Assembly: GCA_023150535.1 (NCBI GenBank)
Contig: JAKLKS010000001.1
Span: 8,269 to 72,268 of the forward strand
Reading direction: 5' to 3'
Length of the DNA stretch: 64,000 nucleotides
From: Planctomycetota bacterium
GTDB lineage: Bacteria > Planctomycetota > JAJSAM01 > JAKLKS01
Part shown: piece by piece, positions 3,890 to 50,860 of the stretch
How positions within the stretch are numbered: the first letter of the stretch is position 1
Layout of the letters: each line of letters begins with the position of its first letter
Program-made: the position numbers and the translations under genes
The notes under the pieces: generated by a model
Database searches by the model: none
The model's input: only the letters and a program-made list of their open reading frames with translations
What the model was told of the DNA's origin: nothing

Positions 3890-4465
3890 CTACCGCAGCA
3901 CGGCCCGCAGGCGGTTCGACAGCGACCCGCCCTTGTTGCCGACCTTCTCCCGGGGGCCGACGTGCTTCTCGCAGAACGCGTAGGCGGCCTTGTTGATGGA
4001 CTCCTTGAGGGCGGCGAGCGGGATCACCTCGGAGGTGCCGGGCTTGCCCTTCACCGCGACCCGGACGCCCTTTTCGACCCGCTCGACCTCGAAGGAGACC
4101 TTCTCCGACACGTTGGCCCCGCGCCCCCCCTCGAACTCGCAGGGGACCTCGGCCTTCCGGCACGCCTCGCGGTAGGGCGCCACGGCCTTGCGGTAGGCGT
4201 CCTTGGCCCCGGCGACCATCGCCCGGGCCTTCTCGGTCATCTCGTTCGCCTCGGCCTCCGCCACCGCCAGCGCGGTCCTGGCCTCGTCCACCGGCTTCCG
4301 GAGCGCCTCGAGATCCACCGGGGGCGGGGCCTTCGTCTCGGCGGCCTTCGGCGCCTTCACCCGCTTCCCCTTCTTCCCCGTCGCGGCCGGCGCGGCCACC
4401 GTGGTCGTCGCGCCCTCGGCCGGCGCCGCGTCCTTCCTCGTCGCCTTTTTCTTCGCCTTCGCCAT
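3890..4465 (-). CDS. Lys/Ala-rich histone H1-like phage protein (192 aa)
   Basis: Start MAKAKKKATRK at 4465 with GGAGAGGAG RBS; N-terminal 60 aa KAP-rich low complexity then globular domain. Confidence 0.55.
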   Translation of the reverse strand: MAKAKKKATRKDAAPAEGATTTVAAPAATGKKGKRVKAPKAAETKAPPPVDLEALRKPVDEARTALAVAEAEANEMTEKARAMVAGAKDAYRKAVAPYREACRKAEVPCEFEGGRGANVSEKVSFEVERVEKGVRVAVKGKPGTSEVIPLAALKESINKAAYAFCEKHVGPREKVGNKGGSLSNRLRAVLR

Positions 4466-4515
4466 GATCGTCTCTCCTCTCCGGGCCTTCGCCCGGAACG
4501 TCGGAACCAGCGTCC

Positions 4516-4696
4516 TCACGCCTTCACCGCCTCGATGCCCCGGACCTCGGCGAGGTCCCCGTAGAGGGCACGGGCTTGGAGGAGCGCGTCCTTTCCGTCC
4601 GTGGCGTGGAGGTCGGGGACCCTCATCGCGAGGGTCTCGCCGTCCACGGCGACGCGGACGTACACCTCGAACCGTTCGAGCTGCGGGCGGGCCACG
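4516..4696 (-). CDS. Small hypothetical phage protein (60 aa, GTG start)
   Basis: C-terminal part of spurious ORF 4516..5412; GTG at 4696 preceded by GGAGG and overlapping stop of upstream gene. Confidence 0.35.
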
Positions 4697-4697
4697 G

Positions 4698-4925
4698 TCA
4701 GGCCTCCGTCACGCAGAGGTGGCCCGGCCCGTTTCCCTCCGCGTCCTGCCAGGCCTGGAGCACTACGCGCTGTCCCGCGCGCGTGCGGACCTCGACCTCC
4801 GCCACCACCCGCCCGTCGAACATCCGGGCCGGGCGGACCTCGACGAGGGTGGCGCCCGCCAGCCCGGCGTACTCCTGGCGGATGGCGTCCTCCTCGCGCT
4901 TCTCCCACTCCGTGGGTCGCGGCAT
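4698..4925 (-). CDS. Hypothetical phage protein (75 aa)
   Basis: Start MPRPTEWEK at 4925 with GGAGAGGAGG RBS. Confidence 0.5.
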   Translation of the reverse strand: MPRPTEWEKREEDAIRQEYAGLAGATLVEVRPARMFDGRVVAEVEVRTRAGQRVVLQAWQDAEGNGPGHLCVTEA

Positions 4926-6901: not shown

Positions 6902-6904
6902 GCG

Positions 6905-7123: not shown

Positions 7124-7132
7124 GGGCGCCCC

Positions 7133-7531: not shown

Positions 7532-7555
7532 GGGTCTCTCCTCCCTCTCCCCCGA

Positions 7556-8886: not shown

Positions 8887-9743
8887 CGGAACACGTCCAG
8901 GATCCGCCGGCGGGCGTCCCGGGAGAGCCCGGGGGCATGGGGCGGGGTCTCCTCGTCGGGAAGGGGCCGCTCCACCCGCGGCGCGGCGATCTCGGCGGTC
9001 CGAGGGAGGGCGGGGAGCGGGCCCTGCCCGCCGGGGGGCTCCTCCGCGGTGGCCCCGCCGACCCGCGCCGCGAGGCGCTCCGGCACCCGCTTGAACCGCT
9101 CGAGGCCGAACACCGCCGCGGCCTTCTCCGGCTTCTCCGTGCCGTCCGCGAACCCCTCCGCCACCGCCTCTTCGGCGGTCATCCACCACTCCCCACCCGC
9201 GTCCGCCACGCGCTGGGCCAGCGTGGCGGCCCGCCGCCCCGTCCGCCGGGCGTAGGTCGCGAGCATCGCCGACCACGCCTTGTCCAGCGTCTCGGCCTGC
9301 CGGCGGAACTCCTCCGCGTCGCCGAGTACCGCGGTCCAGGGCCGGTGGACCATCAGCATCGCGTTCTCCGCCACGATGGTCTCGTCCCCGGCCAGGGCCA
9401 CGAGGGACGCGATGGAGGCAGCCAGTCCGTCCACGTGGACCGTCACCTTCCCCGGGAACCGGGTGAGCGCGTTGTAGATGGCGATGCCCTCGAAGACGTC
9501 GCCGCCGTTGGAGGAGAGCCGGACGTCGAGGGCGGGCACGTCCGCCAGCGCGCGGAGGTCCTCCACAACCCGGCGGGCCGGGATGCCCCCGAGGAAGTCC
9601 TCCCCGAGGATGTCGTAGAGGTAGAGCGTGGCCGTGACGGGCCCGGGCTCGACGACCTGGGCTCCGTCCTGCTCCCCGGCGGGGATGGCGGCCCACACCT
9701 TCTCCACGGCGTAGCCCTTCCCGTCCTTCAGCGCGGTGGTCAT
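8877..9743 (-). CDS. Prohead protease (ClpP/S14-like head maturation protease)
   Basis: Start MTTALKDGKGYAVEKV at 9743 with AAGGAGA RBS and ATGA overlap with portal stop; VRLSSNGGDVFEGIAIYNAL and MVHRPW motifs of ClpP family. Confidence 0.85.
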   Translation of the reverse strand: MTTALKDGKGYAVEKVWAAIPAGEQDGAQVVEPGPVTATLYLYDILGEDFLGGIPARRVVEDLRALADVPALDVRLSSNGGDVFEGIAIYNALTRFPGKVTVHVDGLAASIASLVALAGDETIVAENAMLMVHRPWTAVLGDAEEFRRQAETLDKAWSAMLATYARRTGRRAATLAQRVADAGGEWWMTAEEAVAEGFADGTEKPEKAAAVFGLERFKRVPERLAARVGGATAEEPPGGQGPLPALPRTAEIAAPRVERPLPDEETPPHAPGLSRDARRRILDVFRLT

Positions 9744-11023
9744 GCGGGGGTCTCCTTCTGCGGCAGGGTGGTGGCCTGGTCCGTCGGCGCGGCCGGTGCG
9801 ACCGGCGCGGAGGTGCCCACGGGAACGAGGTTTCCGGGCCTGACGCGGTGCTTGCCGAGCCCGTCCGGCAGAGCGTTGAGCTCTTCCAGCTCGCGGACCT
9901 CGTCGAGGTCGTAGACCCCCCTGTCCAGCATCTGCCCGTAGAACTGCGCCCGGGCCGTGAGGTCCCCGCGTAGGAGTGCGTTCAGGTTGTGCCGGGCGTA
10001 GTAGCGGCCCCTCTCCGAGGGGAGGAGGAGGTCGCGGGTGATGGTCGCCTCGAACCGCACGAGCCAGGGCCGAAGCGTGTTCTGCACGAACTCCAGCGCC
10101 GCCTGCTCCATGTTCGCGCGCGGCTGCGCGGTCGTGTCCCCCAGCATGTGGAGGGGGACGCGGAAGATGCGGGCGATCTCGGCCACCTGGAACTTCCGCT
10201 GGTCGATGAACTGGGCGTCGTCGAGGTTCATCCCCACCTTCTCGAACTTCGCCCCCGCCTCGAGGATGACCGTCTTCCCGGCGTTGACGGCGCCGGCGTA
10301 GGCCGCATCCCAGGAGGCCTTGAAGCGCTGGTATTCGGGGTCCTCCATCACGGCCGGGTGGGTGACGACCCCGGCCACGCGGGCGCCGTTCTTCATGAAG
10401 GACGCCTGCGCCTGCTCGAGGACCAGGGAGATGCCCATCGACTCCCGACAGAGGCCGATGGGGCTGAGGCCCGTCACACCGTTCCACGAGAGGCCAGGGA
10501 TGCGCCACACCTCCCTGGGCCGGAGGGTCCGCGGCTTCACCCCGGGCTCGTTCACCTCGACCAGGAGGGGGCCGCCTGGGGTCTCGCGGTAGTCCCGCGT
10601 GTGAGCCGGGAGGAGGGGCCAGAGTTCCCGCACGTCCCCGCCGCCGTCCCGGACCACCTGCGCCCGGGCGTTGCCGCGGAGGAGGACGTGGGCGCAGAGG
10701 GTCTCCCGGAGGGACTGAGCGGTGATCTCCTCGTTGGCCTCGACGTGGAGGACCTGGTCGAGGGGGTGCTCGTCAGCGAGGCGCCGATCCCCGTTCGCCT
10801 GCTTCTCGTAGACCCGAAGCGGCAGCGTGCTGATGGTCTCGGCGATCACCTTCACACTGGAGAGGACGGCCGTGATGCGAAGCGCTGAGTCGTCGGTGAC
10901 GGAGACGCCCGAGGCCGTCGGGGCGGAGACTCCGGGGTACTTCCAGAAGGTCTCCGGGGGCTCGTCCGAGATCACCCACCCGAGGAGTCGGCGGGCCAGG
11001 CGGCGGATGGGACCGGGGGGCAC
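9740..11023 (-). CDS. Phage portal protein, HK97 family
   Basis: 427 aa; ...FQVAEIARIFRVPLHMLGD... portal motif. Confidence 0.9.
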   Translation of the reverse strand: MPPGPIRRLARRLLGWVISDEPPETFWKYPGVSAPTASGVSVTDDSALRITAVLSSVKVIAETISTLPLRVYEKQANGDRRLADEHPLDQVLHVEANEEITAQSLRETLCAHVLLRGNARAQVVRDGGGDVRELWPLLPAHTRDYRETPGGPLLVEVNEPGVKPRTLRPREVWRIPGLSWNGVTGLSPIGLCRESMGISLVLEQAQASFMKNGARVAGVVTHPAVMEDPEYQRFKASWDAAYAGAVNAGKTVILEAGAKFEKVGMNLDDAQFIDQRKFQVAEIARIFRVPLHMLGDTTAQPRANMEQAALEFVQNTLRPWLVRFEATITRDLLLPSERGRYYARHNLNALLRGDLTARAQFYGQMLDRGVYDLDEVRELEELNALPDGLGKHRVRPGNLVPVGTSAPVAPAAPTDQATTLPQKETPA

Positions 11024-11191: not shown

Positions 11192-13702
11192 CTACTTCCT
11201 CCTCCGCCTAGCCTGCTTGGTCACGTCCTCGTGGAGGTGGGTCGGGGAGAGCCTGAGTTCATCGAGCAGGAGCGCGACGTCCTTTCGGCTCCAACCTCCT
11301 GGCTCCCGCGCCGCGAGTCTGCCAACCAGCTGGGTGGCACGGTCCTTGAGCTCAGCGAGCCCCTCGTGCTCGATGGTCCGCAGGTGGTCGATCGGATCGA
11401 GGTCGGCCAACGCCGTGTCGATGACCATCACGGGCGTCACCGGTGCGCCAGGGTAGTTCCTCTCGAACCAGGAATGGCTCAACGTAATCTGCCCCATGTC
11501 GCGCTTGCAGATTGCATCCGTCTCAGACCGGCTCTTGCACTCGATCACCCAGCTCATGTCTCGCCAACGCCACAAGTTGTCGGGGCCGTCACCTTCATCC
11601 CGCTCCGGTCGCTCGCTCTGCGCGCCCAAGACGGCCCCTAAGAATTCCGTGGCGTCCTCGAAGGCCACATGTCCGACGCCAAAGTACAGGTCCATGAGTC
11701 GGCTGGCCGCCTCCGCCACGGCTCCCTGGCCATCGGCGAATTGCCCGTACCATTTCAGGACGTTGTCGGCCGCAGAGGCCAGAGCGGCATCTCTCGGCCT
11801 CAGGGCTGTGACCTCTGTAGGCCGGAGCAGTCGATGTGAGATCGCGTACGCCTTTCGCTGGATACGCATGGCCTCATCTGGGTCCGATCCGACCGTCATC
11901 CTGCCGAGGACCTGGAGGTATCGAGCGTAGGAGGGGCCCGAGTCCAGCTTCGCCTTGTTGAGCGCCTTGCTCAATGTGTCGACTGCCGCCGGCGCATCTC
12001 CATCGATCGCCTGAACGAGCGACCTGCGTTCAGCATCGGCAAGATTCACCGCCACCGGATCGCCACCCTTCGGAGGGTTGGGGACCCGGTTCCGCACTCT
12101 CTGGATGTAGATGTCCTTCCACACGCCCGCTCGGCGAAGGCAGTTGTCGACGAGCTCGTCGAAGGCCTCTTCGCCCGACGCACTCTCCGCTCCGCGGGCC
12201 AGATCTATGAGCTCCTTCCCGAGAGTAAGTTGCGCCTGGACCTCGTCACTCATCTGCGATCGAACGTCGGTCTTCGAGACGAAGCTCGCCAGCGCTTCTC
12301 CACCAAGGACGACGACCGCATAGTCGGCACTCGATCGCACCGCGCGTCCCATTCCCTGCTCGATGCGATAAACAACGCGGTTCCGGACCCCACCGTCCCT
12401 TGGACTGCTGCTACTGTCCATCTCATCTGTAAGGCCCTGCCCCCGGGGGATTCCATCGAGGACCAGGATCCGGCAAGCGTCGTCAGGCAGATCGATGCCG
12501 TCGAACCTCTGCGCAAAGGCGGCGAATCGTAGATCCCCCTTACGAAGGTCTCTTACGGCAGCAGCCACGTCGGCGTGGCCAGCTGGCGCGGCAGCACCAT
12601 GGGCCTCCCACTCCTTGGCTTCAGCCGCACTTGAGCAGAGGACGACCACGGCATCCTTCTCCGAGCGAGATGCGGCCCACATCATGAGCCACTCGCGGTT
12701 CATTTCTCGGTCGATCAGAGTAGGCGCCAGGATCATCCGCTCGCCAATGCCCGACTCCTTGGAGGGGGTAATGGGCCCCAGAGCCGCTGCGACTTCGCAC
12801 CCGAGTTCGCGGACCAGCACGGAGTCATCCGAGAGGGTCCCCGACATGAACAGCCGATGAGCCGCTTCATGGTATGGGCGGATCTCGCGGACAAGCGGGA
12901 CCTCTGTAGATAGCTCGACTACTCCGCGCCCGATCACGACCCGCAAGAATGGCAGAGATGCCCTGATCAGTGGCCAACGGAGATCTCGATCCGCTCCTGT
13001 TGCGTACTTGCGAACGAGGGCTTCGACCCGGTCACCCAGCTGGGGAAGGTGCCAGTAGGGGACCTCGATAAGAACCCTGGGGTCGCCCTCGCGAATGTCC
13101 CGCCACGCACTGCGAAGGTGCTTCACCATCACTCCATCGATCTCGCCGATGAAGTGCGTCACTCCCTCCGGGTCGGAGATCCGAAGAGTGAAAGCGTCTC
13201 GCACCTCCTCGACCCCCGCATGGGCATCGTCGAGAACCAGTGCCGTGGGAACGATCCCGACGTCTTGGCGGCTGAACGTCGTACGGGCATTGAACAACTT
13301 GTCGTAGGTGCAAACGATCACGGCTTGGCCAGAGAGACAATCGGCGTGGGGGTGAGGTTCTCCCGACGCGTAGGGGTGGGCGTCTAGGCCGAGGCGTCGA
13401 GCCTCCACCAGGACCTGGTCAGCGAGTTGGAGATTGGGGCATAGGTAAACGCCGACCCCCTGGGTTGCAGCCATGTGGGCCTTGAGGTACAGAAGCCCGA
13501 CGGTCGACTTCCCAGACCCCGTGGGCATCTTCAGCACTAGGTCGCGCTCGTCCCGCCGCTTGTGAAGCTCCTTCAGCGCCGCGACTTGGAACGGCCGAAG
13601 GTTGACGTGCGAGGTCTTCCGGTCGAGGCCCTCGAACAGCTGGAGTGGATCCGTCGGTTGGCCGCCGCCACGCTTCGAGAGGAGCTTCCGCAGGTCAACC
13701 AT
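11192..13702 (-). CDS. SF2 DEAD/DEAH-box helicase fused to C-terminal putative PD-(D/E)xK nuclease domain (836 aa); moron in packaging module
   Basis: Walker A LKMPTGSGKSTVG, DExH-like LVLDDAHA, motif VI QGMGRAVRS; C-terminal WRDMSWVIECKSR. Track ORF 1433 aa but N-terminal ~600 aa overlaps terL in another frame; start MVDLRKLL at 13702 with GGAGGA RBS (alternative 13765). GC visibly lower than neighbours. Confidence 0.8.
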   Translation of the reverse strand: MVDLRKLLSKRGGGQPTDPLQLFEGLDRKTSHVNLRPFQVAALKELHKRRDERDLVLKMPTGSGKSTVGLLYLKAHMAATQGVGVYLCPNLQLADQVLVEARRLGLDAHPYASGEPHPHADCLSGQAVIVCTYDKLFNARTTFSRQDVGIVPTALVLDDAHAGVEEVRDAFTLRISDPEGVTHFIGEIDGVMVKHLRSAWRDIREGDPRVLIEVPYWHLPQLGDRVEALVRKYATGADRDLRWPLIRASLPFLRVVIGRGVVELSTEVPLVREIRPYHEAAHRLFMSGTLSDDSVLVRELGCEVAAALGPITPSKESGIGERMILAPTLIDREMNREWLMMWAASRSEKDAVVVLCSSAAEAKEWEAHGAAAPAGHADVAAAVRDLRKGDLRFAAFAQRFDGIDLPDDACRILVLDGIPRGQGLTDEMDSSSSPRDGGVRNRVVYRIEQGMGRAVRSSADYAVVVLGGEALASFVSKTDVRSQMSDEVQAQLTLGKELIDLARGAESASGEEAFDELVDNCLRRAGVWKDIYIQRVRNRVPNPPKGGDPVAVNLADAERRSLVQAIDGDAPAAVDTLSKALNKAKLDSGPSYARYLQVLGRMTVGSDPDEAMRIQRKAYAISHRLLRPTEVTALRPRDAALASAADNVLKWYGQFADGQGAVAEAASRLMDLYFGVGHVAFEDATEFLGAVLGAQSERPERDEGDGPDNLWRWRDMSWVIECKSRSETDAICKRDMGQITLSHSWFERNYPGAPVTPVMVIDTALADLDPIDHLRTIEHEGLAELKDRATQLVGRLAAREPGGWSRKDVALLLDELRLSPTHLHEDVTKQARRRRK

Positions 13703-13788: not shown

Positions 13789-15666
13789 TCAGACGGTGCG
13801 CACTCCTCGAGTGGCGTATGGAGACGCGGGGCCACTGGGCAGAACCATGAGTCGCGAGAGCGCCGTCACCGTAGCGACGACCCCGTCGATGCGCCTCTTC
13901 GGATTCGCTTTCACGGGCCGGATGTTCTCGTTCTCGTCCTCCTTCACGGCGGCGTTCGAAACGCACCAGGACATCGCGCGGTTCCCGTCGTGGTGGACCC
14001 GGCGCGCGCGGGTGAGGGCGTGGAGGACCTTGCACGAGGTGGAGAGCGTCTTCGGACCCTGCCGGACCTCTACTGGCTGGAGGCCCGCCTTCTCCAACTG
14101 CAGCGCGAACTGGAGCGCGTTCCAGGGGTCGTAGCCGATCTCCTTCACGCGGTACCGCGGGGCCAGCTCGTCCACGATGGTCCGGAAGATGAAGTCGTAG
14201 TCCACGACGCTCCCGGGAGTGGTGCGGAGATGGCCCTCCCGGACCCATACCCCGTAGTCCACGCCGTCCTCCTTGGACCGCTCGTGAAGGCGCTCCTCGG
14301 GCATCCAGAGGAAGGGGAGCACGGCCAGGTCGTAGTTGATGGACAGCACCTTCTTCACCGGGGCACCCGCGGCGTCGAACTCGACCGCCTGGACCGTGGG
14401 GACCTTCTCCCCCTCGAGACGGCTCTCGGGGAGGCGGAACACCAGGACGAACGCCGTGAGGTCCGTCGTCGAGGAGAGGTCGAGCCCGCCGGCGACGGGA
14501 CGCTTGACAAGGGACTCGGGCCCGGGCAGCGACGGGCAGTCCTTCCACCACTCGATGGGGATCCAGACCTCGTTCGTCCGGGTCCAGATGTTGAGGTGGA
14601 GGCGCTTGAAGGCCCCCTGCTTGCGAGGCTCCGCCTGGGCCGCCCGGCACTCCGCCTCGAGGTAGTCCCGCTTCACTGTCACCCCGAGGGAGGGGTTTGC
14701 CTTCGCCCAGATCCGCGGGTCCCGCCAGTCGTCCCCCTCCTTCGCCTCGAAGATGACGGGGAGGTAGGTCTCGTCCTCGATGAGCCCCGACATGACGCGC
14801 TTGGCGTACTCGTACTCCTCGTAGCAGACCGAGTCCTGATCGTCGCCGGCCGTGGTGATGAGGACCACGATGGGCTGGCGCCGCGCGGCGATGCCCTTGG
14901 ACAGTGTGTCGTAGAGGTCGCGGTTCGGCTGGGTATGGAACTCGTCGAAGAGGAGCGCGTGGATGTTCGGCCCGTGGCGGCCCTTCACCTCCGAGGAGAC
15001 CACCTTGAAGGAGGAGCGGGTCTCCGGCACCACGATGGCGCGGCGGTAGGTCTCGGACCTCGCTGCCAGGCGCCGGCTCGCAGCGTTCATGTCGCGGGCC
15101 TCGTTGAACACGATCCCCGCCTGCTCGCGGTCGGCCGCCGCGGCCACGATCTCCGCTCCGGGCTCGCGGTCGCAGTGGAGGAGGTAGAGGCCGAGGCCGG
15201 ATATGCAGGCCGACTTCCCGTTCTTCTTCCCGATGACGATGAACACCTTCCGGAACCGCCGGAGGCCGTCCGAGGCCCGCTTCCACCCGAAGAGCGGCCT
15301 GACGAGGAGCTCCCGCTGCCAGTCGAGGAGGTCGAAAGGCTGCCCCGCGAACTCCCCCGTCAGGTGCCGGAGGAAGGTCGGGAAGAAGTCCACCGCCCGG
15401 GCGGCCTCCTCCTCGTCGAAGAAGTAGCGTCCCCCGTGGTCGTGGACGGGGATGGTGACCGCGGGCCAGCGCTCGAGGGCCAGGGCGTTCCACGGGGACA
15501 CGGGGGCGGTCTGATTCACACCGACCAAGATCGGGGCGAGCGAGACTCGTGCCACTCCGGTAAGGTCATCCTCCTGCGGCGCCGGAGCCATCCGACCCGA
15601 GGAATGCCCTTCAGTGGTACTCTCGGAGTTGTTGACGTGCTGGCGGAGGGCCGGAGATTGGAGCAC
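13789..15666 (-). CDS. Terminase large subunit
   Basis: 625-aa ORF with ATPase and nuclease halves (..VFIVIGKKNGKSA.., LLFDEFH, ..EIGYDPWN..); start may be internal ATG at 15591. Confidence 0.85.
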   Translation of the reverse strand: MLQSPALRQHVNNSESTTEGHSSGRMAPAPQEDDLTGVARVSLAPILVGVNQTAPVSPWNALALERWPAVTIPVHDHGGRYFFDEEEAARAVDFFPTFLRHLTGEFAGQPFDLLDWQRELLVRPLFGWKRASDGLRRFRKVFIVIGKKNGKSACISGLGLYLLHCDREPGAEIVAAAADREQAGIVFNEARDMNAASRRLAARSETYRRAIVVPETRSSFKVVSSEVKGRHGPNIHALLFDEFHTQPNRDLYDTLSKGIAARRQPIVVLITTAGDDQDSVCYEEYEYAKRVMSGLIEDETYLPVIFEAKEGDDWRDPRIWAKANPSLGVTVKRDYLEAECRAAQAEPRKQGAFKRLHLNIWTRTNEVWIPIEWWKDCPSLPGPESLVKRPVAGGLDLSSTTDLTAFVLVFRLPESRLEGEKVPTVQAVEFDAAGAPVKKVLSINYDLAVLPFLWMPEERLHERSKEDGVDYGVWVREGHLRTTPGSVVDYDFIFRTIVDELAPRYRVKEIGYDPWNALQFALQLEKAGLQPVEVRQGPKTLSTSCKVLHALTRARRVHHDGNRAMSWCVSNAAVKEDENENIRPVKANPKRRIDGVVATVTALSRLMVLPSGPASPYATRGVRTV

Positions 15667-15969
15667 ATTCCATACCTCGCGTTCCTTCCCTACCTACCGC
15701 TGGAGAGGCCGGTCGTGTTCTCGAACTGGTGGCTGGGCCCGGCGGCGAGGTTCAGGAGACCCTGGGCGAGCCCCGAGTTCCACACGGCATCACGGCGGTT
15801 CCTCACCAGGTTCCGGACTGCAGACGGGCGGCGAGTGACTAGCCCTGCGATCCTTGCCCATCGTGAGCGGGGGGCCGATGGCCGCCTCCCAAGTGCACAT
15901 GAAGTTGAGATCCTCGAAGCCACGATCCTATTCGCCGTCCTTGACGCCAACCCGGAATGGTCTGAGGAA

Positions 15970-16824
15970 GTGGATGCGAGGAGGGTCGCCACCTCGGACA
16001 ACGCAGATCTGTTCCTCTGGCCCATCGATGTCGGCGGCGGCGTCACGATGGGGCCTCACGGACTGATCGTCCAGCACATCACCGGAGGACTCCGATTCAC
16101 GCGACGAGGATTTCGAGTGCCGGGCCCTCTGGCCCTCTCGCTGCCACGCAAGCTGACGCTCGACGCGGACCTCATGGGAGCGCTAGTCGGCGCGATGTCG
16201 ATGGCAGGGCCACGGCAGCCAGAGTCCGATGCTGCGCGGATGCTCCGGGCGATCCGCTGGTACGGCAAGGCGTGGAGGAACGACCTGAAGCTCGACTGGG
16301 GCGAGCGGGTCGTGATGCTCAAGACCGCGTTCGAGACGCTCCTCAACGAGGACGACACCCGGATGGCCGCACGCAAGATCGAGAGGCTCTTCTGCCGTGT
16401 CCTCGGAACCCGCGACACGGACCTCCTGTGGAAGCCGAAGGAGCGTAGGCGGGTCGTGACGTACACCAAGCTGAGCGGCAATACTGCTCATGAGGCGCGC
16501 ACGGACCTGATGGACTGGTGCATCACGTTCGGTGAGGCGCGCAACACCGTCGTCCACAAGGGGCTCTCACCCGAGATGATGTACGCCTGCCCTGGAGGAT
16601 CTGCGTACGACGGTCACCTGTTCCACACTGGTTCCCGGCTCTTCCGCGAGGCGGTGAAGGTGCGGCTGGAGGACGTGGGATTCCCAATGATGTGGGCGAG
16701 CGCGCGCGTGCGACACGGCGTCCGCCTCTTCACGCGAATCCGGCAGAGACTCGCCCGTTCGCGCCGAGGGGGTTGTAGCACCCGAACTTCAGAGGCAGTG
16801 ACGGTGCGGACGCCGAGACCCTGA
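15970..16824 (+). CDS. HEPN-motif hypothetical protein (putative RNase/abortive-infection-like); start uncertain (GTG 15970 or ATG 16048)
   Basis: Plus-strand coding in C-terminal third of track ORF 13990..16824; lower GC from ~15890; C-terminal DWCITFGEARNTVVHKG contains canonical R-N-x3-H HEPN signature; embedded between terL and terS on opposite strand. Confidence 0.5.
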   Translation: MDARRVATSDNADLFLWPIDVGGGVTMGPHGLIVQHITGGLRFTRRGFRVPGPLALSLPRKLTLDADLMGALVGAMSMAGPRQPESDAARMLRAIRWYGKAWRNDLKLDWGERVVMLKTAFETLLNEDDTRMAARKIERLFCRVLGTRDTDLLWKPKERRRVVTYTKLSGNTAHEARTDLMDWCITFGEARNTVVHKGLSPEMMYACPGGSAYDGHLFHTGSRLFREAVKVRLEDVGFPMMWASARVRHGVRLFTRIRQRLARSRRGGCSTRTSEAVTVRTPRP

Positions 16825-16829
16825 GTTCG

Positions 16830-17342
16830 CTACCCCGCCCCGAAGAACCGCTCGTCGAGGTCGGACTCGCCGGGCGCCACGCCCCGCGCCCCGCCCGCGG
16901 CGTGGACCCGGGATCGGCTCGACGGCGTCATCCCGAACTCCACGAGGAACGCCCGCATCTGCTCCAGGGCCTTGTTCGCGATGGCGAGGTAGGGCGAGTG
17001 GGCGAGGTAGCCCGAGGGGGCCTTCACGACTGCCCCGTACTGGCGGACCTTCTCCTCGGCGTCCAGGAGCCGGGCGTAGGCGAGGCAGTAGCCCATCAGT
17101 GCCGGCCCGTCGATCTCGGTCAGGAGCCCGGCCTTGAAGAGGATCCTCCCCATCCGGTGCCACTCGCGTCGGGACGCTCCGTCGAGCACCTTGGGGCAGG
17201 CCGGCATCCGCCGGCGGGGCTCGGGCTCGGTCTGGTTGAGCGGCCGGTGCCCGGGATTCCCCGCGAGGACCTTGAGGAGCGTGGGCTTGGGCTTCCGGCC
17301 GCCGCCGGGCGCGCGGGACCTACCCACACGCCACCTCCGCAA
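16830..17342 (-). CDS. Terminase small subunit (P27 family)
   Basis: ...GYCLAYARLLDAEEKV...YLAIANKALEQMRAFLVEFGMTPSSR... typical P27 TerS. Confidence 0.8.
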   Translation of the reverse strand: MRRWRVGRSRAPGGGRKPKPTLLKVLAGNPGHRPLNQTEPEPRRRMPACPKVLDGASRREWHRMGRILFKAGLLTEIDGPALMGYCLAYARLLDAEEKVRQYGAVVKAPSGYLAHSPYLAIANKALEQMRAFLVEFGMTPSSRSRVHAAGGARGVAPGESDLDERFFGAG

Positions 17343-17517
17343 GGGCGCGGGCGCCGTTCGAGGACGGGCCGCGCGGACTCCGGGGGACGAGGGCGCCGTC
17401 GCCGGGCCCCCTCGGCCCTCGCTTCCCGCAGAAGATGCACCACACCCCGGGGTCGTACCGGTCGCCGCGCTTCCAGGATGGCGGCGCGAGGAGGTACTGC
17501 CAGTAGTGGATCCCCAT
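17320..17517 (-). CDS. Small hypothetical protein (MGIHYWQYLL...WCIFCGKRG)
   Basis: Part of ORF 17320..17595; no clear RBS. Confidence 0.3.
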   Translation of the reverse strand: MGIHYWQYLLAPPSWKRGDRYDPGVWCIFCGKRGPRGPGDGALVPRSPRGPSSNGARALAEVACG

Positions 17518-17537
17518 CCAGCAGAGGAGGCGGCGGA

Positions 17538-18950
17538 TCACGCGGCCCCCTTCGCTGGGACGCGTTCCGCCTTCTTCCCGGTGAACTGCTCCCACCGCGC
17601 GACGATGACGTCGGTGTAGAGCGGGTCGATCTCGATGAGCCGCGCATTCCGCCCCATCTGCTCAGCGCCGATGAGCGTGCTGCCCGAGCCCCCGAAGAGG
17701 TCGAGCACCGTCTCGCCCGGGCGCGAGCAGTACTTCATGGCGAGCGTCGCTAGCTCGACGGGCTTCTCGGTAAGGTGGACCATCTTCTGCGGCGAGACCT
17801 TTTTCACGCTCCAGACGTCGGTCGCGTTGTTGATGTCGGGGGCGAAGTAGTGGGCGGCGCCTTCGCGCCATCCGTAGAACGCCCACTCATGGTTCCCCAT
17901 GAAGTCCTTCCGCGTGAGGACGGGGTGCTCCTTCACCCAGATGATGGCCTGGGAGAAGTAGAGCCCAGCCTCGACGAGCGCGGGCGGGTAGTTGGCGATA
18001 TTGCTGTACCCGCCCCAGATGAAGAACCCCCGCCCCGGGAGGAGGACGCGGGCGGCGTTCCCGAACCACGCGCGGAGCTTCTCCCGGAACGCCTCGTCGG
18101 ACATGAAGTCGTTCTCGAGGGGGCGGTCCTTCGCCCGCATCCGCTTGTGGGTGGGCTTCGACTTCTCCGGGTGGCGGTCGAGGTCGGCCGCCTGGTGGTG
18201 CATCGTGCCCTGGAAGGAGGAGAGGCCGGCGGCGATGGCGTTGTTCGAGCGCGGCTCGACGCGGACGTTGTAGGGCGGATCGGTGTTCAGAAGGTGGACC
18301 GGCCCGCCGTCCAGGAGCCGGTCGAGATCCTCCGGGCTCCCCGAGTCGCCGCACAGGAGCCGGTGTTCGCCGAGGATCCAGAGGTCGCCGCGGCGCGTCG
18401 TCGGCGTCTCGGGCGGCTCGGGGATGTCGTCGGGGTCGGTCTCCCCCTCCTTCGCCTCCGCGCCGATGCCGGACTTCTGCGCGAGGTCATCGAGCATCGC
18501 GCGCAGCGCGGCGTCGTTGACGGTTGCCTGCGCGAGGAGGGCCTCCAGCTTGGCCGGGTCGGCCGTCGCCATCCCGGCGAGGGGGTCGAGCGACGCGAGG
18601 ACGAGCGCCTCCTCGGCCTCGTCGAGGTCCACGTAGACGACGGGGATCGCGGTCTCGCCGCGCGCCCGAGCGAGTTCCACGCGGAGGTGCCCGTCCACGA
18701 GGTGGCCCGTGCGGCGATTGACGACGACGTCCTGGACCCATCCGACCTGGTCGAGGAGGCCCGCGAGCGCCGCTTGCTGCGCTGGCGGATGCCCGCGCCA
18801 GTTCCTCGGGTTGGCGACGAGCGCCGCCGGGGAGGCCTCGCCGCGGTCCACGATGCGGGAGCGCCAAGGACCGGGCGAGGGCGCCGCCGGAGCGGCCTTC
18901 CGCTTGCGGCCCTTCCGGGTGGCGGCCTGGCTCACGACCAGGCCTCCCAC
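17538..18950 (-). CDS. ParB-like nuclease domain fused to DNA N6-adenine/N4-cytosine methyltransferase
   Basis: N-terminal ParB/Srx-like domain, C-terminal MTase with TDPPY motif and FGGSGST AdoMet motif; common terminase-adjacent phage gene. Confidence 0.85.
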   Translation of the reverse strand: MGGLVVSQAATRKGRKRKAAPAAPSPGPWRSRIVDRGEASPAALVANPRNWRGHPPAQQAALAGLLDQVGWVQDVVVNRRTGHLVDGHLRVELARARGETAIPVVYVDLDEAEEALVLASLDPLAGMATADPAKLEALLAQATVNDAALRAMLDDLAQKSGIGAEAKEGETDPDDIPEPPETPTTRRGDLWILGEHRLLCGDSGSPEDLDRLLDGGPVHLLNTDPPYNVRVEPRSNNAIAAGLSSFQGTMHHQAADLDRHPEKSKPTHKRMRAKDRPLENDFMSDEAFREKLRAWFGNAARVLLPGRGFFIWGGYSNIANYPPALVEAGLYFSQAIIWVKEHPVLTRKDFMGNHEWAFYGWREGAAHYFAPDINNATDVWSVKKVSPQKMVHLTEKPVELATLAMKYCSRPGETVLDLFGGSGSTLIGAEQMGRNARLIEIDPLYTDVIVARWEQFTGKKAERVPAKGAA

Positions 18951-34788: not shown

Positions 34789-35133
34789 GTGCGGCCCAGC
34801 GACGCGCTCCCGGCGGAGGCTTCTGAGCCTCGTCGCCACCTCCTCCCCGGCGACCTCCTGTCCGTGGCCCAGGCGCTCGAGCTCCTCCCCGTGGGCCGGG
34901 CGACGCTTTACCGGCTCCTCGCGGAGCAGGCGATCCCCTCCATCCGGGTGGCCACCCTGGGGTCGCGGAGGGGGCGGGTGCTCATCGTGCGGGGCGGCCT
35001 TGAGCGCTTCGTGGCCTCGCTCCTCGGGCCCCCCGAGGAGCGCCGCGTGAGTCCCCGTCCCCTCGACGTGAACGCGCTCCGCGACCGCATCGTCGGGGCG
35101 GGCGCTGTCCGTGCCCGCTTGGAGGCTCGCTGA
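34789..35133 (+). CDS. Excisionase-family HTH DNA-binding protein
   Basis: LLSVAQALELLPVGRATLYRLLAEQAIPSIRV HTH; GTG start with GGAGGG RBS; directly upstream of integrase. Confidence 0.6.
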   Translation: MRPSDALPAEASEPRRHLLPGDLLSVAQALELLPVGRATLYRLLAEQAIPSIRVATLGSRRGRVLIVRGGLERFVASLLGPPEERRVSPRPLDVNALRDRIVGAGAVRARLEAR

Positions 35134-36554
35134 TGGGCGATGGCTGGCCCAGGAACACCCTTGATGTGCCCCCCGGGACGAGCCCTCATGCGGACATGCC
35201 CAGGAACCAGACCCCGGAGCCGCTCGATCCCGAGGCCCGAGACCGGCGCTCCGCATCATCCTCCCACGAGGAGGGGGGCCGGCGGCGCCGACGGGTATTC
35301 GGACGGATCTACCGCAAGCCCACCTCGCAGTCGACGTGGTACGTCCGGTTCCCGGACCCCGAGCGGCGCCGGGCCCCGAACGGGCGGGTCCGGGAGATCG
35401 TCCGGTCGGTCCCGTCCCGCCGGGCGGCCGAGGCCCTGCTCGCGGAAGTCCGGAAGGCCCTCTACGCGGGCACCTACGCCCCGCCGCCCCCGGCCCTGGC
35501 GGGACCCGCGGCCCTCACGATGCAGAGCGCCGCCCCGGGGACCGCCGCCGAGACTCCCGCCCGCCCCTTCACCGTCCTCGACGCCATCGACGAGTACATC
35601 GCCTCCCGCGAGGCCGCGGGCCGGATGCGGAACACGCTCGACTCCTACCGCGGGCACCGCAACGCGATCGCGCAGAGCCCGCTGGGAACCGTCCCTGCCG
35701 ACGCGGTGACCCCGGCGGACATCGAGGCCTTCCGGGCCTGGCGGCGGGAGCGATCCTGGAAGACGGTCCGCCGGCCCGGGGAGGTGAAGGATCCCGACGT
35801 GACGGAGGTCGCCCGGGCTGCGTCGAACGCAACGGTGAACCGGGCGCTGATGGTCCTTGGGGCCTCACTCAACCGACTCGTGAAGCTGGGGCGCCTCCGG
35901 GAGAACCCAGTCCTCCGGGTCGTGAAGGCGCGGGAGGCACGCCAGCCGCGGGTCTCCCTCACCAAAGACGAGGCCCGCCGCCTCATCGAGGCTTCCGACC
36001 CGGCCCTCCGGCCGCTCGTGGCCGCGGGGCTCTACACCGGGGCGCGTCTCGGAGAGCTCCTCCGTCTCACGTGGGCGGACGTCACCTTCGGGTCCGGGAG
36101 TGGGACGGGGACCATCTCCCTCTTCCGGCCCAAGGTCGGGAACGCCTCCCGGATCCCGTTCCACCCACGGCTCGCCGAGGAACTCCTGCGGGTCCGGGAG
36201 TCGCGGGCACGCAAGCGCGGCCGGCCCGTCCCCGATGACGAGCCCATCTTCCTCTCGTCCTACGGCCGGGCGTGGGTGACCATCGGGGGGGCGTTCAAGA
36301 AGGCGCTCCGGACCGCGGGCCTCGAGGGGCGGGGCATCGTCTACCACAGCCTCCGCCATACGTTCGCCGTCCACTTCCTCGAGGGCGGCGCGGCGGTGAC
36401 CGACCTCCAGGGGATCCTCGGCCACGCGGACCTCACCACGACCCAGATCTACGCCCACATGGTGGACAGCCGGACTCGAGCGAGTCTGGTCGCCCTCGAC
36501 TACGGGGCGCCGGCGGCCACGGGAGACGGCGCAGATCCCGGCCCAGCCCGATAG
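35133..36554 (+). CDS. int: Tyrosine-type site-specific integrase
   Basis: R...HSLRHTFAV...Y catalytic pattern (GARLGELLRLTWADV, YHSLRHTF, TTQIYAHM); ends 33 nt before tRNA. Confidence 0.9.
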   Translation: MGDGWPRNTLDVPPGTSPHADMPRNQTPEPLDPEARDRRSASSSHEEGGRRRRRVFGRIYRKPTSQSTWYVRFPDPERRRAPNGRVREIVRSVPSRRAAEALLAEVRKALYAGTYAPPPPALAGPAALTMQSAAPGTAAETPARPFTVLDAIDEYIASREAAGRMRNTLDSYRGHRNAIAQSPLGTVPADAVTPADIEAFRAWRRERSWKTVRRPGEVKDPDVTEVARAASNATVNRALMVLGASLNRLVKLGRLRENPVLRVVKAREARQPRVSLTKDEARRLIEASDPALRPLVAAGLYTGARLGELLRLTWADVTFGSGSGTGTISLFRPKVGNASRIPFHPRLAEELLRVRESRARKRGRPVPDDEPIFLSSYGRAWVTIGGAFKKALRTAGLEGRGIVYHSLRHTFAVHFLEGGAAVTDLQGILGHADLTTTQIYAHMVDSRTRASLVALDYGAPAATGDGADPGPAR

Positions 36555-40063: not shown

Positions 40064-40409
40064 CGCCATGTTCCGGGTGCGGGGCGTGTTCCAGCCGCAC
40101 CGACTCGCGGAGGTGGTCCGGGCGCTGCACGCGCTCCCGCACTTCCCGGGGTTCACGGTCCAGGACGTGCGGGGGCAGGGGCGCGGTCGCGGAGCGGGCG
40201 GGGCCTTCAAGGTGGTCGAGGACGAGATCGACTACCACCGGAAGACCGCCATCGAGGTCGTCTGCGCCGGCAGTCAGACGGACGCTGTCGTGCAGGCCAT
40301 CCTGCGAGGGGCGAAGACCGGCCACGCGGGCGACGGCATCGTCATCGTCGAGCCGCTAGCTCGCGTCGTCCGGATCCGGACGGGCGAAGAAGGGGAGGGG
40401 GCGGTCTGA
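40053..40409 (+). CDS. P-II (GlnB-like) family protein embedded between czcB and czcA
   Basis: 118 aa, ...GDGIVIVEPLARVVRIRTGE... P-II fold signature; overlapping start/stop both sides. Confidence 0.65.
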   Translation: MTTSAMFRVRGVFQPHRLAEVVRALHALPHFPGFTVQDVRGQGRGRGAGGAFKVVEDEIDYHRKTAIEVVCAGSQTDAVVQAILRGAKTGHAGDGIVIVEPLARVVRIRTGEEGEGAV

Positions 40410-43400
40410 TGCTCGACAGGGTCCTCCTCTTCGCCGTCCGGCAGCGTATCTTCGTGGTCCTCCTCGCCGTCGCGCTCGCGGGGGTCGGGATCTGGTCCTT
40501 CGGAAAGCTCCCCATCGACGCCGTGCCGGACATCACCAACGTCCAGGTGCAGATCAACACCCAGGTCCAGGCGCTGTCCCCGGTCGAGGTGGAGAAGCTG
40601 GTCACCTTCCCCATCGAGTGGGCCATGGGGGGCATCCCCGGGGTGGAGCAGGTGCGCTCGCTCTCCCGGTACGGGCTCTCCCAGGTCACGGTCGTCTTCG
40701 AGGACGGGACCGACATCTACCGGGCCCGCCAGCTCGTGGCCGAGCGGCTCCTGGAGGCGAAGGAGTCGCTCCCGGCCGGGATCGGGGAGCCCACGATGGG
40801 CCCCATCTCCACGGGGCTCGGCGAGATCTACATGTGGGAGGTGCACGCGACGGGTCCGAGGCCCGACGGGAGCCCGTACTCCCTGACCGATCTGCGGACT
40901 GTCCAGGACTGGATCGTCCGGCCGCAGCTCCGCACGGTGCCCGGCGTGACCGAGGTGAACAGCATCGGCGGCTACGAGCGCCAGATCCACGTGACGCCCG
41001 ACCCCGCGAAGCTCCGCGCCTACGGGCTCTCCTTCCGGGACGTGGCGGATGCCCTCGCGGCCAACAACGCCAACGTCGGCGGCGGCTACGTCGAGCACCG
41101 GGGCGAGCAGTACGTCATCCGCTCCACGGGCCGCGTGGAGTCGCTGGAGGACGTCCTCAACGTGAAGCTCGGGGTCCACGACGGGGTCCCGGTCCTGGTC
41201 CGCCACGTCGCCGGGGCGGCCGAGGGGAAGGAGCTTCGCACGGGGGCGGCGACGGTGAGCGGCGAGGAGGCGGTCGTCGGGACGGCCATCATGCTCCTCG
41301 GCGAGAACAGCCGGACCGTCTCCCGTCGCGTGGACGAGAAGATCCGGGCCATCGCGAAGTCCCTCCCGGAGAACGTGGAGGTCAAGACCCTCTACGACCG
41401 TACCTACCTGGTCGAGGCCACGCTACAGACCGTGCGGAACAACCTGCTCGAGGGCGCCGTCCTCGTGATCGTGATCCTGTTCCTCCTCCTGGGACACGTG
41501 CGGGCGGCGTTGATCGTGGCTCTCGCCATTCCGCTCTCGATGCTGTTCGCCGTGGCGGGGATGGTGCGAGGCGGGATCAGCGGGAACCTCATGAGCCTGG
41601 GCGCCGTGGACTTCGGGATCATCGTGGACGGGGCGGTGGTGATGGTGGAGCACATCCTCCGGCGCCTGGGAGAGGCGGGGCACAACCTAGGACGTGCCCC
41701 CACGCGGGCGGAGCGCGTCTCGCTGGCCTACGAGGCGTCCCGGGAGGTGGCGCGACCGGTCCTCTTCGGGGTCGGGATCATCATGATCGTCTACATCCCG
41801 ATCCTGAGCCTGACGGGGATCGAGGGGAAGATGTTCCGGCCGATGGCGGAGGTGGTGCTCCTGGCGCTGGCCGGCTCGCTGCTCCTCACGTTTACGCTGG
41901 TCCCGGCGCTCATCGCCCTCCTCCTCGGGGGGAAGGTCTCCGAGAAGGACAACGCGCTCGTCCGCGCGGCGAAGGCCTCCTACGCGCCGACGCTGGACGT
42001 CGCGCTCCGCCGCCCAGGGCTCGTCGTGGGCTCGGCCCTCCTCCTCCTCGCGGGGACGGGGCTCCTCGCCTCGGGGCTCGGGAGCACGTTCGTCCCGAAG
42101 CTCGGGGAGGGCGCCATCGCGGTCCAGCCGGCGCGGATGCCCTCCATCTCGCTGGGACAGAGCGTCGCCATGCAGGGGCAGGTCGAGAAGCGGCTCCTCG
42201 CGGAGTTCCCCGACGAGGTGCTCTCCGTCTTCGCCCGTACGGGGACCGCGGAGGTGGCCACCGATCCGATGGGCCCCAACGTCTCCGACACCTACGTGAT
42301 GCTGAAGCCTCGCGAGGGGTGGAAGAAGGCCCGCACGCAGGAGGAACTGGCCGACCGGATGGCCGAGGCGCTGGAGGCCGTCCCCGGGCAGGCCTACGAG
42401 TTCAGCCAGCCCATCGAGCTGCGGTTCAACGAACTCATCTCCGGGGTCCGGAGCGACCTCGCCGTGAAGGTCTTCGGGGACGACCTGGAGACCCTCCGGG
42501 GGTACGCCGGGAAGGTGGCTCGGATCCTGGGCGGCATCCCGGGGGCGGCCGACGTGAAGGTGGAGCAGGTGACGGGGCTTCCCGTGCTGACCGTGGAGGT
42601 GGACCGCGCCGCCATCGCGCGCTACGGGCTCAACGTGGCCGAAGTGCAGGAGGTGGTCGAGATCGCGCTCGGGGGCCGTGAGGCGGGAGAGTGGATCGAG
42701 GGGGACCGCCGGACGCCGCTCGTCGTGCGTCTCCCGGAGCGCATCCGCAACGACCTCGACTCTCTCCGCAACCTCCCGGTGCCCGTCCTCTTAGGGGGGT
42801 CGGACGAGGAGCCTCCCGGTGACGGGGAAACGTCGTCCGGGGGGCCCTCGTTCCTCCCGCTCTCGACCTTTGCCCGTATCGAGCTCGTCGAAGGGCCCAA
42901 CCAGATCAGCCGCGAGGCCGGCAAGCGCAGGGTCGTCGTCCAGTGCAATGTGCGGGGGCGGGACCTCGGGTCCTTTGTCGAGGAGGCCCAGGTCCGCATC
43001 GACCGGGAGATCCCCAAGCTCCCCGAAGGCTACTGGCTCGGCTGGGGCGGTCAGTTCGAGAACCTCATCGCTGCGAAGGAGAGGCTCGAGGTCGTTGTCC
43101 CGCTGGCGCTGTTCCTCATCCTGCTGCTCCTCTTCGCGACCTTCGGGTCCATCAAGCAGGCGCTCCTCGTCTTCACGGGAGTCCCCCTGGCTCTCACCGG
43201 GGGCGTGGTCGCCCTGTGGGCCCGGGACCTTCCGTTCTCCATCTCCGCGGGGATCGGGTTCATCGCGCTGTCGGGAGTCGCGGTGCTGAACGGCCTCGTG
43301 ATGGTGTCCTTCATCAACCGGTTGCGCGAGGAAGGGAGGCCGCTCGCGGACGCCGTCCGGGAGGGATCGCTGGCCCGGCTCCGCCCCGTGCTGATGACGG

Positions 43401-43633
43401 CGCTGGTCGCCTCGCTGGGCTTCGTGCCGATGGCGCTGGCCACGGGGACGGGCGCGGAGGTCCAGAGGCCGCTGGCCACGGTGGTCATCGGGGGACTCGT
43501 CTCCTCGACGCTGCTCACCCTCGTTGCCCTGCCGGTCCTCTACCGGCTGTTCCACCGCGGCGATGAGAGCGGGAACGGGATGCCCTCAGCCCCAGTCCCC
43601 GAACCCTCTCCGGCGGCAACGCCGGCCGCATGA
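40409..43633 (+). CDS. czcA: Heavy-metal efflux RND transporter CzcA/CusA family
   Basis: 1074 aa, 12-TM RND with HME-type motifs. Confidence 0.95.
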   Translation: MLDRVLLFAVRQRIFVVLLAVALAGVGIWSFGKLPIDAVPDITNVQVQINTQVQALSPVEVEKLVTFPIEWAMGGIPGVEQVRSLSRYGLSQVTVVFEDGTDIYRARQLVAERLLEAKESLPAGIGEPTMGPISTGLGEIYMWEVHATGPRPDGSPYSLTDLRTVQDWIVRPQLRTVPGVTEVNSIGGYERQIHVTPDPAKLRAYGLSFRDVADALAANNANVGGGYVEHRGEQYVIRSTGRVESLEDVLNVKLGVHDGVPVLVRHVAGAAEGKELRTGAATVSGEEAVVGTAIMLLGENSRTVSRRVDEKIRAIAKSLPENVEVKTLYDRTYLVEATLQTVRNNLLEGAVLVIVILFLLLGHVRAALIVALAIPLSMLFAVAGMVRGGISGNLMSLGAVDFGIIVDGAVVMVEHILRRLGEAGHNLGRAPTRAERVSLAYEASREVARPVLFGVGIIMIVYIPILSLTGIEGKMFRPMAEVVLLALAGSLLLTFTLVPALIALLLGGKVSEKDNALVRAAKASYAPTLDVALRRPGLVVGSALLLLAGTGLLASGLGSTFVPKLGEGAIAVQPARMPSISLGQSVAMQGQVEKRLLAEFPDEVLSVFARTGTAEVATDPMGPNVSDTYVMLKPREGWKKARTQEELADRMAEALEAVPGQAYEFSQPIELRFNELISGVRSDLAVKVFGDDLETLRGYAGKVARILGGIPGAADVKVEQVTGLPVLTVEVDRAAIARYGLNVAEVQEVVEIALGGREAGEWIEGDRRTPLVVRLPERIRNDLDSLRNLPVPVLLGGSDEEPPGDGETSSGGPSFLPLSTFARIELVEGPNQISREAGKRRVVVQCNVRGRDLGSFVEEAQVRIDREIPKLPEGYWLGWGGQFENLIAAKERLEVVVPLALFLILLLLFATFGSIKQALLVFTGVPLALTGGVVALWARDLPFSISAGIGFIALSGVAVLNGLVMVSFINRLREEGRPLADAVREGSLARLRPVLMTALVASLGFVPMALATGTGAEVQRPLATVVIGGLVSSTLLTLVALPVLYRLFHRGDESGNGMPSAPVPEPSPAATPAA

Positions 43634-43675
43634 CCACGGGATTGGGGATCTTGACAGGCCGGTGTTCATTCCATA

Positions 43676-43704
43676 CCTTTGGAAATGATGAAGCGTTCCA
43701 AAGG
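43676..43704 (+). promoter_or_regulatory. Perfect 9-11-9 inverted repeat CCTTTGGAA-N11-TTCCAAAGG spanning ArsR start codon (candidate autoregulatory operator)
   Basis: Seen directly; preceded by TTGACAGGC at 43651. Confidence 0.4.
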
Positions 43705-44535: not shown

Positions 44536-44624
44536 CGATCCGGCGCGAGCCGGCGGGGCATCGACCGCCCCGGTCCGGCCTCCGGGGTTCGCTCCCCCTT
44601 CCCCAACCGCGTCCGGAGACACGC

Positions 44625-47692: not shown

Positions 47693-47710
47693 GGGACCCC
47701 GGGGACCGCC

Positions 47711-50860
<3,150 letters not shown>

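Follow-up and report, generated by a model that had tools for sequence, protein, structure and literature searches.

A putative single-protein HEPN RNase gene inserted between the terminase genes of a Planctomycetota prophage

Introduction

Prophage-encoded defences that consist of a single ("solo") HEPN protein are established in Tha (PMC11087260), HepS (PMC13043305) and Butters gp57r (10.1101/2023.01.03.522681), and here we describe a candidate of the same kind, which lies between the small and large terminase genes (terS and terL) of a prophage in a 64,000-nucleotide stretch of DNA from a Planctomycetota bacterium (GenBank assembly GCA_023150535.1, contig JAKLKS010000001.1, positions 8,269 to 72,268). 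We refer to this whole stretch as the window and give positions in its coordinates unless a relative is named. Tha is a tail-activated HEPN anti-phage system of Staphylococcus aureus prophages, exemplified by gp03 of phage 80alpha (PMC11087260), and HepS (HEPN Solo) is a defence element of the Gifsy-1 prophage (PMC13043305; PDB 9oik). ApeA is likewise a solo HEPN defence but is not a prophage gene. In the characterised solo HEPN defence proteins the trigger is bound by the part of the protein that is not HEPN: in DARNA the C-terminal domain binds single-stranded DNA, and a pocket of ApeA binds deoxydinucleotides (bioRxiv 10.64898/2026.01.26.701840).

The HEPN core is all-alpha and is built from two helical hairpins, H1-H2 and H3-H4, H2 being separated from H3 by an insert that varies (PMC3710099). 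As defined in the same study, the catalytic Rx4-6H motif stands at the end of helix 3 or the start of the H3-H4 loop, a polar residue follows the arginine, and helix 2 carries a conserved acidic residue, often as Ex3[KR]. HEPN proteins are described there as dimers whose active site is composite and acts as a metal-independent RNase, and the non-catalytic groups of the superfamily have lost Rx4-6H (PMC3710099).

A one-gene insertion between terS and terL

The HEPN gene of the window is a one-gene insertion that replaces the short spacer between terS and terL. A scan of IMG/VR with the large terminase protein (TerL) provided five contigs of related phages (L006-L010); the TerL proteins of L006-L008 are 79-81% identical to that of the window, and those of L009 and L010 are more distant. 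In all five contigs terS is followed directly by terL. In blastn comparisons, positions 17879..16828 of the window correspond to positions 4907-5955 of L008 and positions 15497..13838 to positions 6002-7661, leaving a gap between terS and terL of 46 bp in L008 as against 1330 bp in the window, and L006 and L007 are alike in this respect. Because the terS/terL junction of the relatives is empty, the 1.33-kb segment of the window is an insertion. A first-pass annotation made from the letters of the window had called the segment acquired cargo, which this comparison bears out, and had put its length at about 0.9 kb, which has to be revised to about 1.33 kb. The empty-site comparison thus delimits a clean, minimal one-gene cassette, in an unusual location within the packaging module of the phage.

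Composition and orientation point the same way, as the annotation had observed. The GC content of the insert is 0.651 compared with a prophage mean of 0.713 (standard deviation 0.031 in segments of the same size), and its GC content at third codon positions (GC3) is 0.787 compared with 0.93-0.97 for the terS, terL, portal, and capsid genes. Between about positions 1600 and 34500, every open reading frame (ORF) of high GC3 is on the minus strand, the HEPN gene being the exception; it is convergent with terS, and the two stop codons are 5 bp apart. Flanking direct repeats that would mark the mechanism of insertion were looked for at the locus, and only short repeats at chance level were found. 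The 46-bp spacer of L008 holds an inverted repeat, recognised by eye (CGCGAGG...CCTCGCG, L008 5956..5987), in the stretch that is replaced in the window.

The plus-strand gene had been placed correctly between terS and terL, and its end at 16824 stands; its start was put at 15880, where the nearby ATG (15878) belongs to another frame. When the portion of the reading frame downstream of terL was compared with a database, it retrieved an NCBI "hypothetical protein" from a metagenome-assembled genome (MAG) of Planctomycetes that has 388 aa and is 100% identical to the product of the window gene, together with 11 homologues that are 320-381 aa long (35-39% identity, E values from 1e-50 to 1e-64, query cover 80-96%) whose alignments begin at residues 1-10 of the 388-aa product. 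Because this identical protein has 388 aa and the homologues align from the first ten residues, we assign the start to TTG 15658, 8 nt upstream of which is a Shine-Dalgarno-like GGAGG. The plus-strand frame is in fact open from 13990 to 16824, but only because its first part is antisense to terL; the window is GC-rich, and long spurious ORFs are therefore common in it. As delimited here, the gene is intact and full length and retains all nearly invariant residues of its family.

The position of terS given in the annotation was confirmed by its Pfam Terminase_4 match (Table 1). In the case of terL, the annotated end at 13789 on the minus strand and the presence of both TerL domains hold, and the annotated start at 15666 is doubtful. 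Homology to the TerL proteins of the relatives begins at residue 57 of the 625-aa ORF, and those proteins start 10-22 residues ahead of a conserved ERWPG; judged from these alignments, GTG 15519 or ATG 15591 appears to be a more likely start than GTG 15666, and with either of them the apparent overlap of terL with the HEPN gene disappears. The first ~50 codons of the 625-aa ORF (15519..15666, minus strand) are not matched in related TerL proteins and fall inside the inserted segment.

Predicted HEPN fold and catalytic motif

By its predicted fold and its active-site signature, the inserted gene product is a member of the HEPN superfamily, and we consider it very likely that the gene encodes a HEPN fold with an intact catalytic motif. 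The annotation had drawn attention to a peptide with an R-N-x3-H signature near the C terminus, and this peptide, DWCITFGEARNTVVHKG, was found at residues 286-302. A motif of this kind is insufficient on its own: a bare Rx4-6H carries no weight because it occurs in 99% of shuffles of this arginine-rich protein, which has a second copy at R76-H81, and the stricter RNx3H occurs in 2.7% of shuffles. The case for HEPN is carried by conservation together with fold. Known proteins brought into this assessment were Csm6, TT1696, sacsin HEPN, and YutE, as well as HepT-type toxins, AbiV, HI0074, and HepS. In an alignment of 88 full-length and diverse homologues (22-38% identical to the query), W287, R295, and H300 are the sole invariant residues, defining the pattern W-x7-R-N-x3-H. 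N296, which is conserved in 98% of these homologues, is the polar residue that follows the arginine in the HEPN definition. Further, E226 is conserved in 95% of the homologues and lies inside helix 214-229, although the residue at +4 is not K or R (consensus FEALTG), unlike in the Ex3[KR] form that is frequent in the superfamily.

The AlphaFold2 model of the protein (predicted local distance difference test score, pLDDT, 83.3; predicted template modelling score, pTM, 0.84) has the layout of the superfamily, with two helical hairpins and an insert between H2 and H3. In the model H2 spans residues 214-229, the insert comprises a helix (234-249) and a hairpin (264-282), and R295-H300 are at the C-terminal end of H3 (283-301), which is followed by a loop (302-320) and by H4 (321-339). 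The two findings that the annotation had named as fatal to its proposal, a predicted structure other than HEPN and variability of the arginine and histidine, were thus not obtained; the predicted fold is HEPN, and both residues are invariant.

The annotation had also proposed profile searches against named HEPN families. These searches (Apea, Cthe_2314, and others) all remained below threshold, and because of these scores we place the protein in HEPN at the level of the superfamily, outside the named families. Pfam scans of the 88 members, of consensus sequences, and of isolated C-terminal domains yielded only sub-threshold matches to HEPN_Apea and HEPN_Cthe2314, located at the motif helix.

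The N-terminal domain of ~170 residues is without a fold match, and a Foldseek search of the full model against the PDB returned nothing at E<=0.001. By analogy with ApeA and DARNA, we propose that this domain may have a sensing or regulatory role.

Comparison with described HEPN systems

By analogy with the described systems, the window protein is best read as one that would work like Tha, HepS, or ApeA while being a member of none of these. It resembles Tha as a prophage-encoded single protein whose C-terminal HEPN domain is preceded by an uncharacterised N-terminal part, in the form of its R-N-x3-H motif (RNSIMH in Tha, RNTVVH here), and in being convergent, tail to tail, with a phage gene on the opposite strand (tha/xis in 80alpha, HEPN gene/terS here). 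It differs in length (388 aa, compared with 301 aa for Tha) and in location, Tha being encoded in the lysogeny module beside int/xis and the window gene between terS and terL; moreover, for Tha both the trigger and an inhibitor (Ith) are known. Membership in the Tha family was rejected: an hhalign comparison of the 88-sequence profile with Tha-1 (80alpha gp03) aligned 23 columns around the motif with a probability of 0.9%.

No sequence similarity to HepS was detected in a profile search against PDB sequences. The listed PDB chain of HepS has 218 residues and no counterpart to the 170-residue N-terminal domain of the window protein; HepS differs further in what is described of it: it assembles into a tetramer, has the lambda J tail-tip protein as its activator, and cuts tRNAs at the anticodon.

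ApeA is similar in being a single protein in which a C-terminal HEPN domain with insertions follows a non-catalytic N-terminal region, and HEPN_Apea (PF18739) is the sole named HEPN family that was touched by several members of the alignment (4 of the 88, best E value 0.012). The match that we inspected spans only positions 73-101 of the profile, which is the motif helix. Membership in the ApeA family was rejected on two grounds: in the HEPN_Apea profile search the window protein gave no match at E<=1 and the four members scored below the 24.4-bit cut-off, and with respect to architecture the Pfam scans gave no match to ApeA_NTD1 (PF18862) and none of the 88 members had a significant PADLOC match. 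In ApeA, the HEPN region occupies residues 335-583 of a protein of three mainly helical domains, whereas the window protein has 388 aa and two domains, the N-terminal one being alpha/beta. Minimal HEPN proteins (HepT/SO_3166, 4nqf, AF0298 2hsb, TT1696, and sacsin HEPN) are single domains of 120-150 residues, usually paired with a minimal nucleotidyltransferase (MNT), whereas the window protein has an N-terminal domain and, between H2 and H3, an insert made of a helix and a beta-hairpin, and no MNT was seen among the neighbour families listed. Overall, it is best described as a known kind of system represented by a new family, whose N-terminal domain is also new.

Distribution and genomic neighbourhoods of the family

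A family profile search of 1.84 billion cluster representatives matched 748 at E<=1e-3 and 220 at E<=1e-30, giving as a lower bound a family of at least 748 cluster representatives at 50% identity. The family is spread patchily across phyla that include Acidobacteriota, Actinomycetota, Chloroflexota, Planctomycetota, and others. From GTDB genomes, 24 loci were collected (Acidobacteriota, Actinomycetota, Chloroflexia, Latescibacterota, proteobacteria, and one Micrarchaeaceae MAG), and genes were called in 23 of them. The locus adds a sizeable family that has had no name, is covered by neither a Pfam nor a PADLOC model, lacks a solved relative, and contributes a candidate sensor domain without a recognisable fold. 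In members of 429-740 aa, a scan for fused domains found no Pfam domain, and their extensions may be mis-called starts.

The best-scoring homologue from a genome (39% identity) belongs to the MAG labelled "Candidatus Micrarchaeaceae archaeon" (DATLRQ010000167.1), which is binned as DPANN while the other loci are all bacterial; either cross-domain transfer or mis-binning would account for it. In two further MAGs the family gene is apparently split into two overlapping ORFs (L031 9710..11142 and L032 8974..10199), which could be frameshifted pseudogenes or long-read assembly errors.

The neighbours of the family gene in the 23 loci comprise integrases, transposases, and group II intron reverse transcriptases, as well as PD-T4-3, a type IIG restriction-modification enzyme, AbiEi, DUF4411, and RHS. 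Seven metagenomic contexts of homologues were also inspected, two of which were uninformative. Among the others, one holds a type I restriction-modification system, an AAA_15/21 ATPase, an integrase, and AbiTii; a second holds SIR2_2; a third an integrase, a TrwC relaxase, and ApeA_NTD1; a fourth an integrase; and a fifth AlpA with DUF5681. Location in defence islands or mobile elements combined with patchy phyletic spread, the operational mark of a defence gene, was found for this family; the prophage of the window itself also carries, at the neighbouring terL/portal junction, a gene that matches a PADLOC candidate defence system (PDC-S28). Because no member was found in INPHARED, IMG/VR, or PLSDB, carriage by a prophage is the exception, and the family is mobile chromosomal cargo that is occasionally on a prophage.

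Proposed function and alternatives

The functional reading that we favour, and regard as probable though by a good way less secure than the fold, is that of a prophage-borne, single-protein, two-domain HEPN RNase that acts by abortive infection. From fold, motif, and genomic context we infer an abortive-infection toxin, for which RNase activity, dimerisation, sensing by the N-terminal domain, an anti-phage phenotype, and an RNA target are the predicted attributes. In the lysogen, a promoter belonging to the gene itself would drive its expression, antisense to the late packaging operon, and the protein would stay inactive until something made by an incoming phage, either a protein or a small ligand, is sensed by the N-terminal domain. 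The HEPN domains of two subunits would then form a composite, metal-independent RNase site, which would cut RNA of the cell, with tRNA anticodon loops or mRNA as the most likely targets. Translation would halt and the infection would be aborted, by which the population of lysogens, and hence the prophage, would be protected. If so, the protein would join Tha, HepS, and Butters gp57r, solo prophage HEPN proteins that represent an emerging, recurrent route by which lysogens exclude rival phages and that differ in their sensors.

Several results weigh against this reading. Pfam and PADLOC scans of the window protein gave nothing significant, the only Pfam hit being GXWXG at an E value of 0.16; PADLOC gave nothing significant for the 88 members either; and the family profile found no HEPN match among PDB sequences at E<=10. 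The equivalence of R295 and H300 with known HEPN active sites was judged from helix positions only. The enrichment of defence genes near the 23 genome loci is modest, and many of the neighbours are housekeeping genes. The family was not encountered in INPHARED phages or PLSDB plasmids, both searched by tblastn, or in a pattern scan of IMG/VR. Finally, a scan of 15300..17500 for sigma-70 promoters and terminators, which is uncalibrated for Planctomycetes, found no sites, and the promoter that the reading calls for was not detected.

Of the alternatives, a toxin-antitoxin module survives best. The protein would then be the toxin of a HEPN/MNT-like pair, or of a pair with a small protein or RNA as antitoxin, that stabilises the prophage and does not sense phages. 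We consider this unlikely. The insert holds only this gene and ~160 bp, and an antitoxin RNA or repeat array was sought at the locus with no Rfam match and only chance-level repeats, none of those upstream of the gene being tandem or convincing. The search for an antitoxin or MNT partner that the annotation had recommended was also negative, since no neighbour is conserved across the 23 other loci, where any one neighbour family is common to at most 3. Among the best 25 of the 84 matched neighbour families there was no nucleotidyltransferase, which leaves absence from the remainder unproven. Membership in HEPN/MNT toxin-antitoxin systems was rejected on the grounds of the single-gene insert and the lack of a conserved neighbour. 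In addition, the protein carries an extra domain that is both large and conserved, a feature typical of solo effectors that regulate themselves. A single gene in the insert and the lack of any conserved neighbour argue for a solo protein and against a toxin-antitoxin pair or a multi-gene system.

A HEPN fold could also serve in ligand or nucleotide binding or in regulation without nuclease activity, as in HEPN-nucleotidyltransferase fusions or MtlR. This is quite improbable for the present family, in which the arginine, the asparagine that follows it, and the histidine are the most conserved positions, unlike in the non-catalytic groups, which are motif-less.

The position of the gene inside the packaging module would fit a role in the lytic cycle of the phage itself, whether in the turnover of host or phage RNA, in counter-defence, or as an accessory to packaging. 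Nucleases associated with phage terminases exist, such as the HNH proteins of HK97-like phages. The HEPN gene, however, runs on the other strand from the late operon and is absent from relatives whose TerL is ~80% identical, which means that it is not needed for packaging; the family was not found in two phage collections (INPHARED and IMG/VR), and elsewhere it occurs in chromosomal, integrase-linked, and defence contexts. A lytic-cycle role is thus very unlikely. Cargo that is in decay or has no function, the scar of an insertion that has ceased to be expressed, would agree with the failure to detect a promoter-like site and with the apparently split family genes of two MAGs, but is the most improbable of these explanations given an intact, full-length ORF that keeps the nearly invariant residues and is preceded by the Shine-Dalgarno-like sequence, together with a promoter scan that is uncalibrated for this phylum.

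In the preferred reading as a solo abortive-infection RNase, the geometry of the locus is of interest for regulation. The promoter of the HEPN gene is presumably inside the divergent intergenic region between its start and the likely start of terL. Because the gene is antisense and no terminator-like site was found, late transcription toward terL must either cross the HEPN gene or start in this 140-bp divergent spacer. We speculate that read-through during the lytic cycle of the prophage itself would silence the HEPN gene, for which the support consists of this geometry and of the tha/xis overlap. The convergent overlap of tha (gp03, minus strand) with xis (gp02, plus strand) in Staphylococcus phage 80alpha amounts to 64 bp (L037 1525..2567). 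Were antisense placement to regulate the gene, it would offer a prophage a simple escape from its own abortive-infection gene.

Prophage setting and second cargo site

The window contains a prophage, as indicated by a portal gene (9740..11023, E value 5e-100), a capsid gene, and a head-tail connector gene; it further encodes a primase-polymerase/DUF3987 protein, an SNF2-type helicase, AAA_24, and a PD-(D/E)XK nuclease. The features of the locus and its surroundings are collected in Table 1.

Table 1. Coordinates in the window of the HEPN gene, the insertion that carries it, and the surrounding genes
Feature	Position	Strand	Details
HEPN-family gene, complete	15658..16824	+	Frame 1; 388 aa; TTG start; TGA stop (16822-16824)
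N-terminal alpha/beta domain	15658..16167	+	Residues about 1-170; conserved PYLPL, LDANP, TSDNADL, WPID
C-terminal HEPN-like helical domain	16204..16692	+	Residues about 183-345
Codons R295-N-T-V-V-H300, predicted catalytic Rx4H motif	16540..16557	+	From conservation and helix position
Inserted segment	15498..16827 (about)		1.33 kb; one gene and ~160 bp upstream; by comparison with related phages (blastn)
Divergent intergenic region	15520..15657		HEPN-gene start to likely terL start; extent inferred from start-codon analysis
terS (small terminase)	16830..17342	-	Pfam Terminase_4, 5.9e-25
terL (large terminase)	13789..15591	-	TerL_ATPase 4.5e-30, TerL_nuclease 2.5e-42; start uncertain: GTG 15519, ATG 15591, or GTG 15666
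DEAD/ResIII/Helicase_C_2 protein at terL/portal junction	11192..13702	-	836 aa; PADLOC candidate PDC-S28 end to end, E=3.7e-219
N6/N4 DNA methyltransferase	17538..18950	-	470 aa; just upstream of terS
Tyrosine integrase	35133..36554	+	Marks one prophage end
Two AcrB/AcrD/AcrF efflux pump genes of the host	40409..50860	+	Beyond the integrase

Apart from the insert, the only stretch of the prophage with a GC content below 0.655 is the gene between terL and the portal gene. This PDC-S28-like gene has the lowest GC content of the prophage (0.634; GC3 0.747) and is a second cargo gene in the packaging module. The same junction is occupied differently in the relatives: in L008 (7708..9476) it holds an unknown 283-aa ORF and a DUF5131 protein (4e-103), in L006 (6360..8497) three unknown ORFs on the opposite strand, and in L009 and L010 terL adjoins the portal gene. 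The terL/portal junction looks like a cargo hotspot, and junctions in the packaging module, which are usually thought of as tightly coupled, can thus hold defence cargo.

A bolder account would join these observations. In it, the HEPN RNase with its N-terminal sensor of no known fold would be a novel single-protein immune system, its antisense placement would let late read-through silence it by transcriptional interference or antisense RNA and so avoid autoimmunity of the prophage, and both the terS/terL and terL/portal junctions would be hotspots of defence cargo in this phage group. We regard this account, taken with all its parts, as doubtful.

The methyltransferase upstream of terS has an N-terminal part of ~215 residues with no Pfam match, and in L008 a non-aligning stretch of ~800 bp (4084..4883) interrupts the homologue of this gene.
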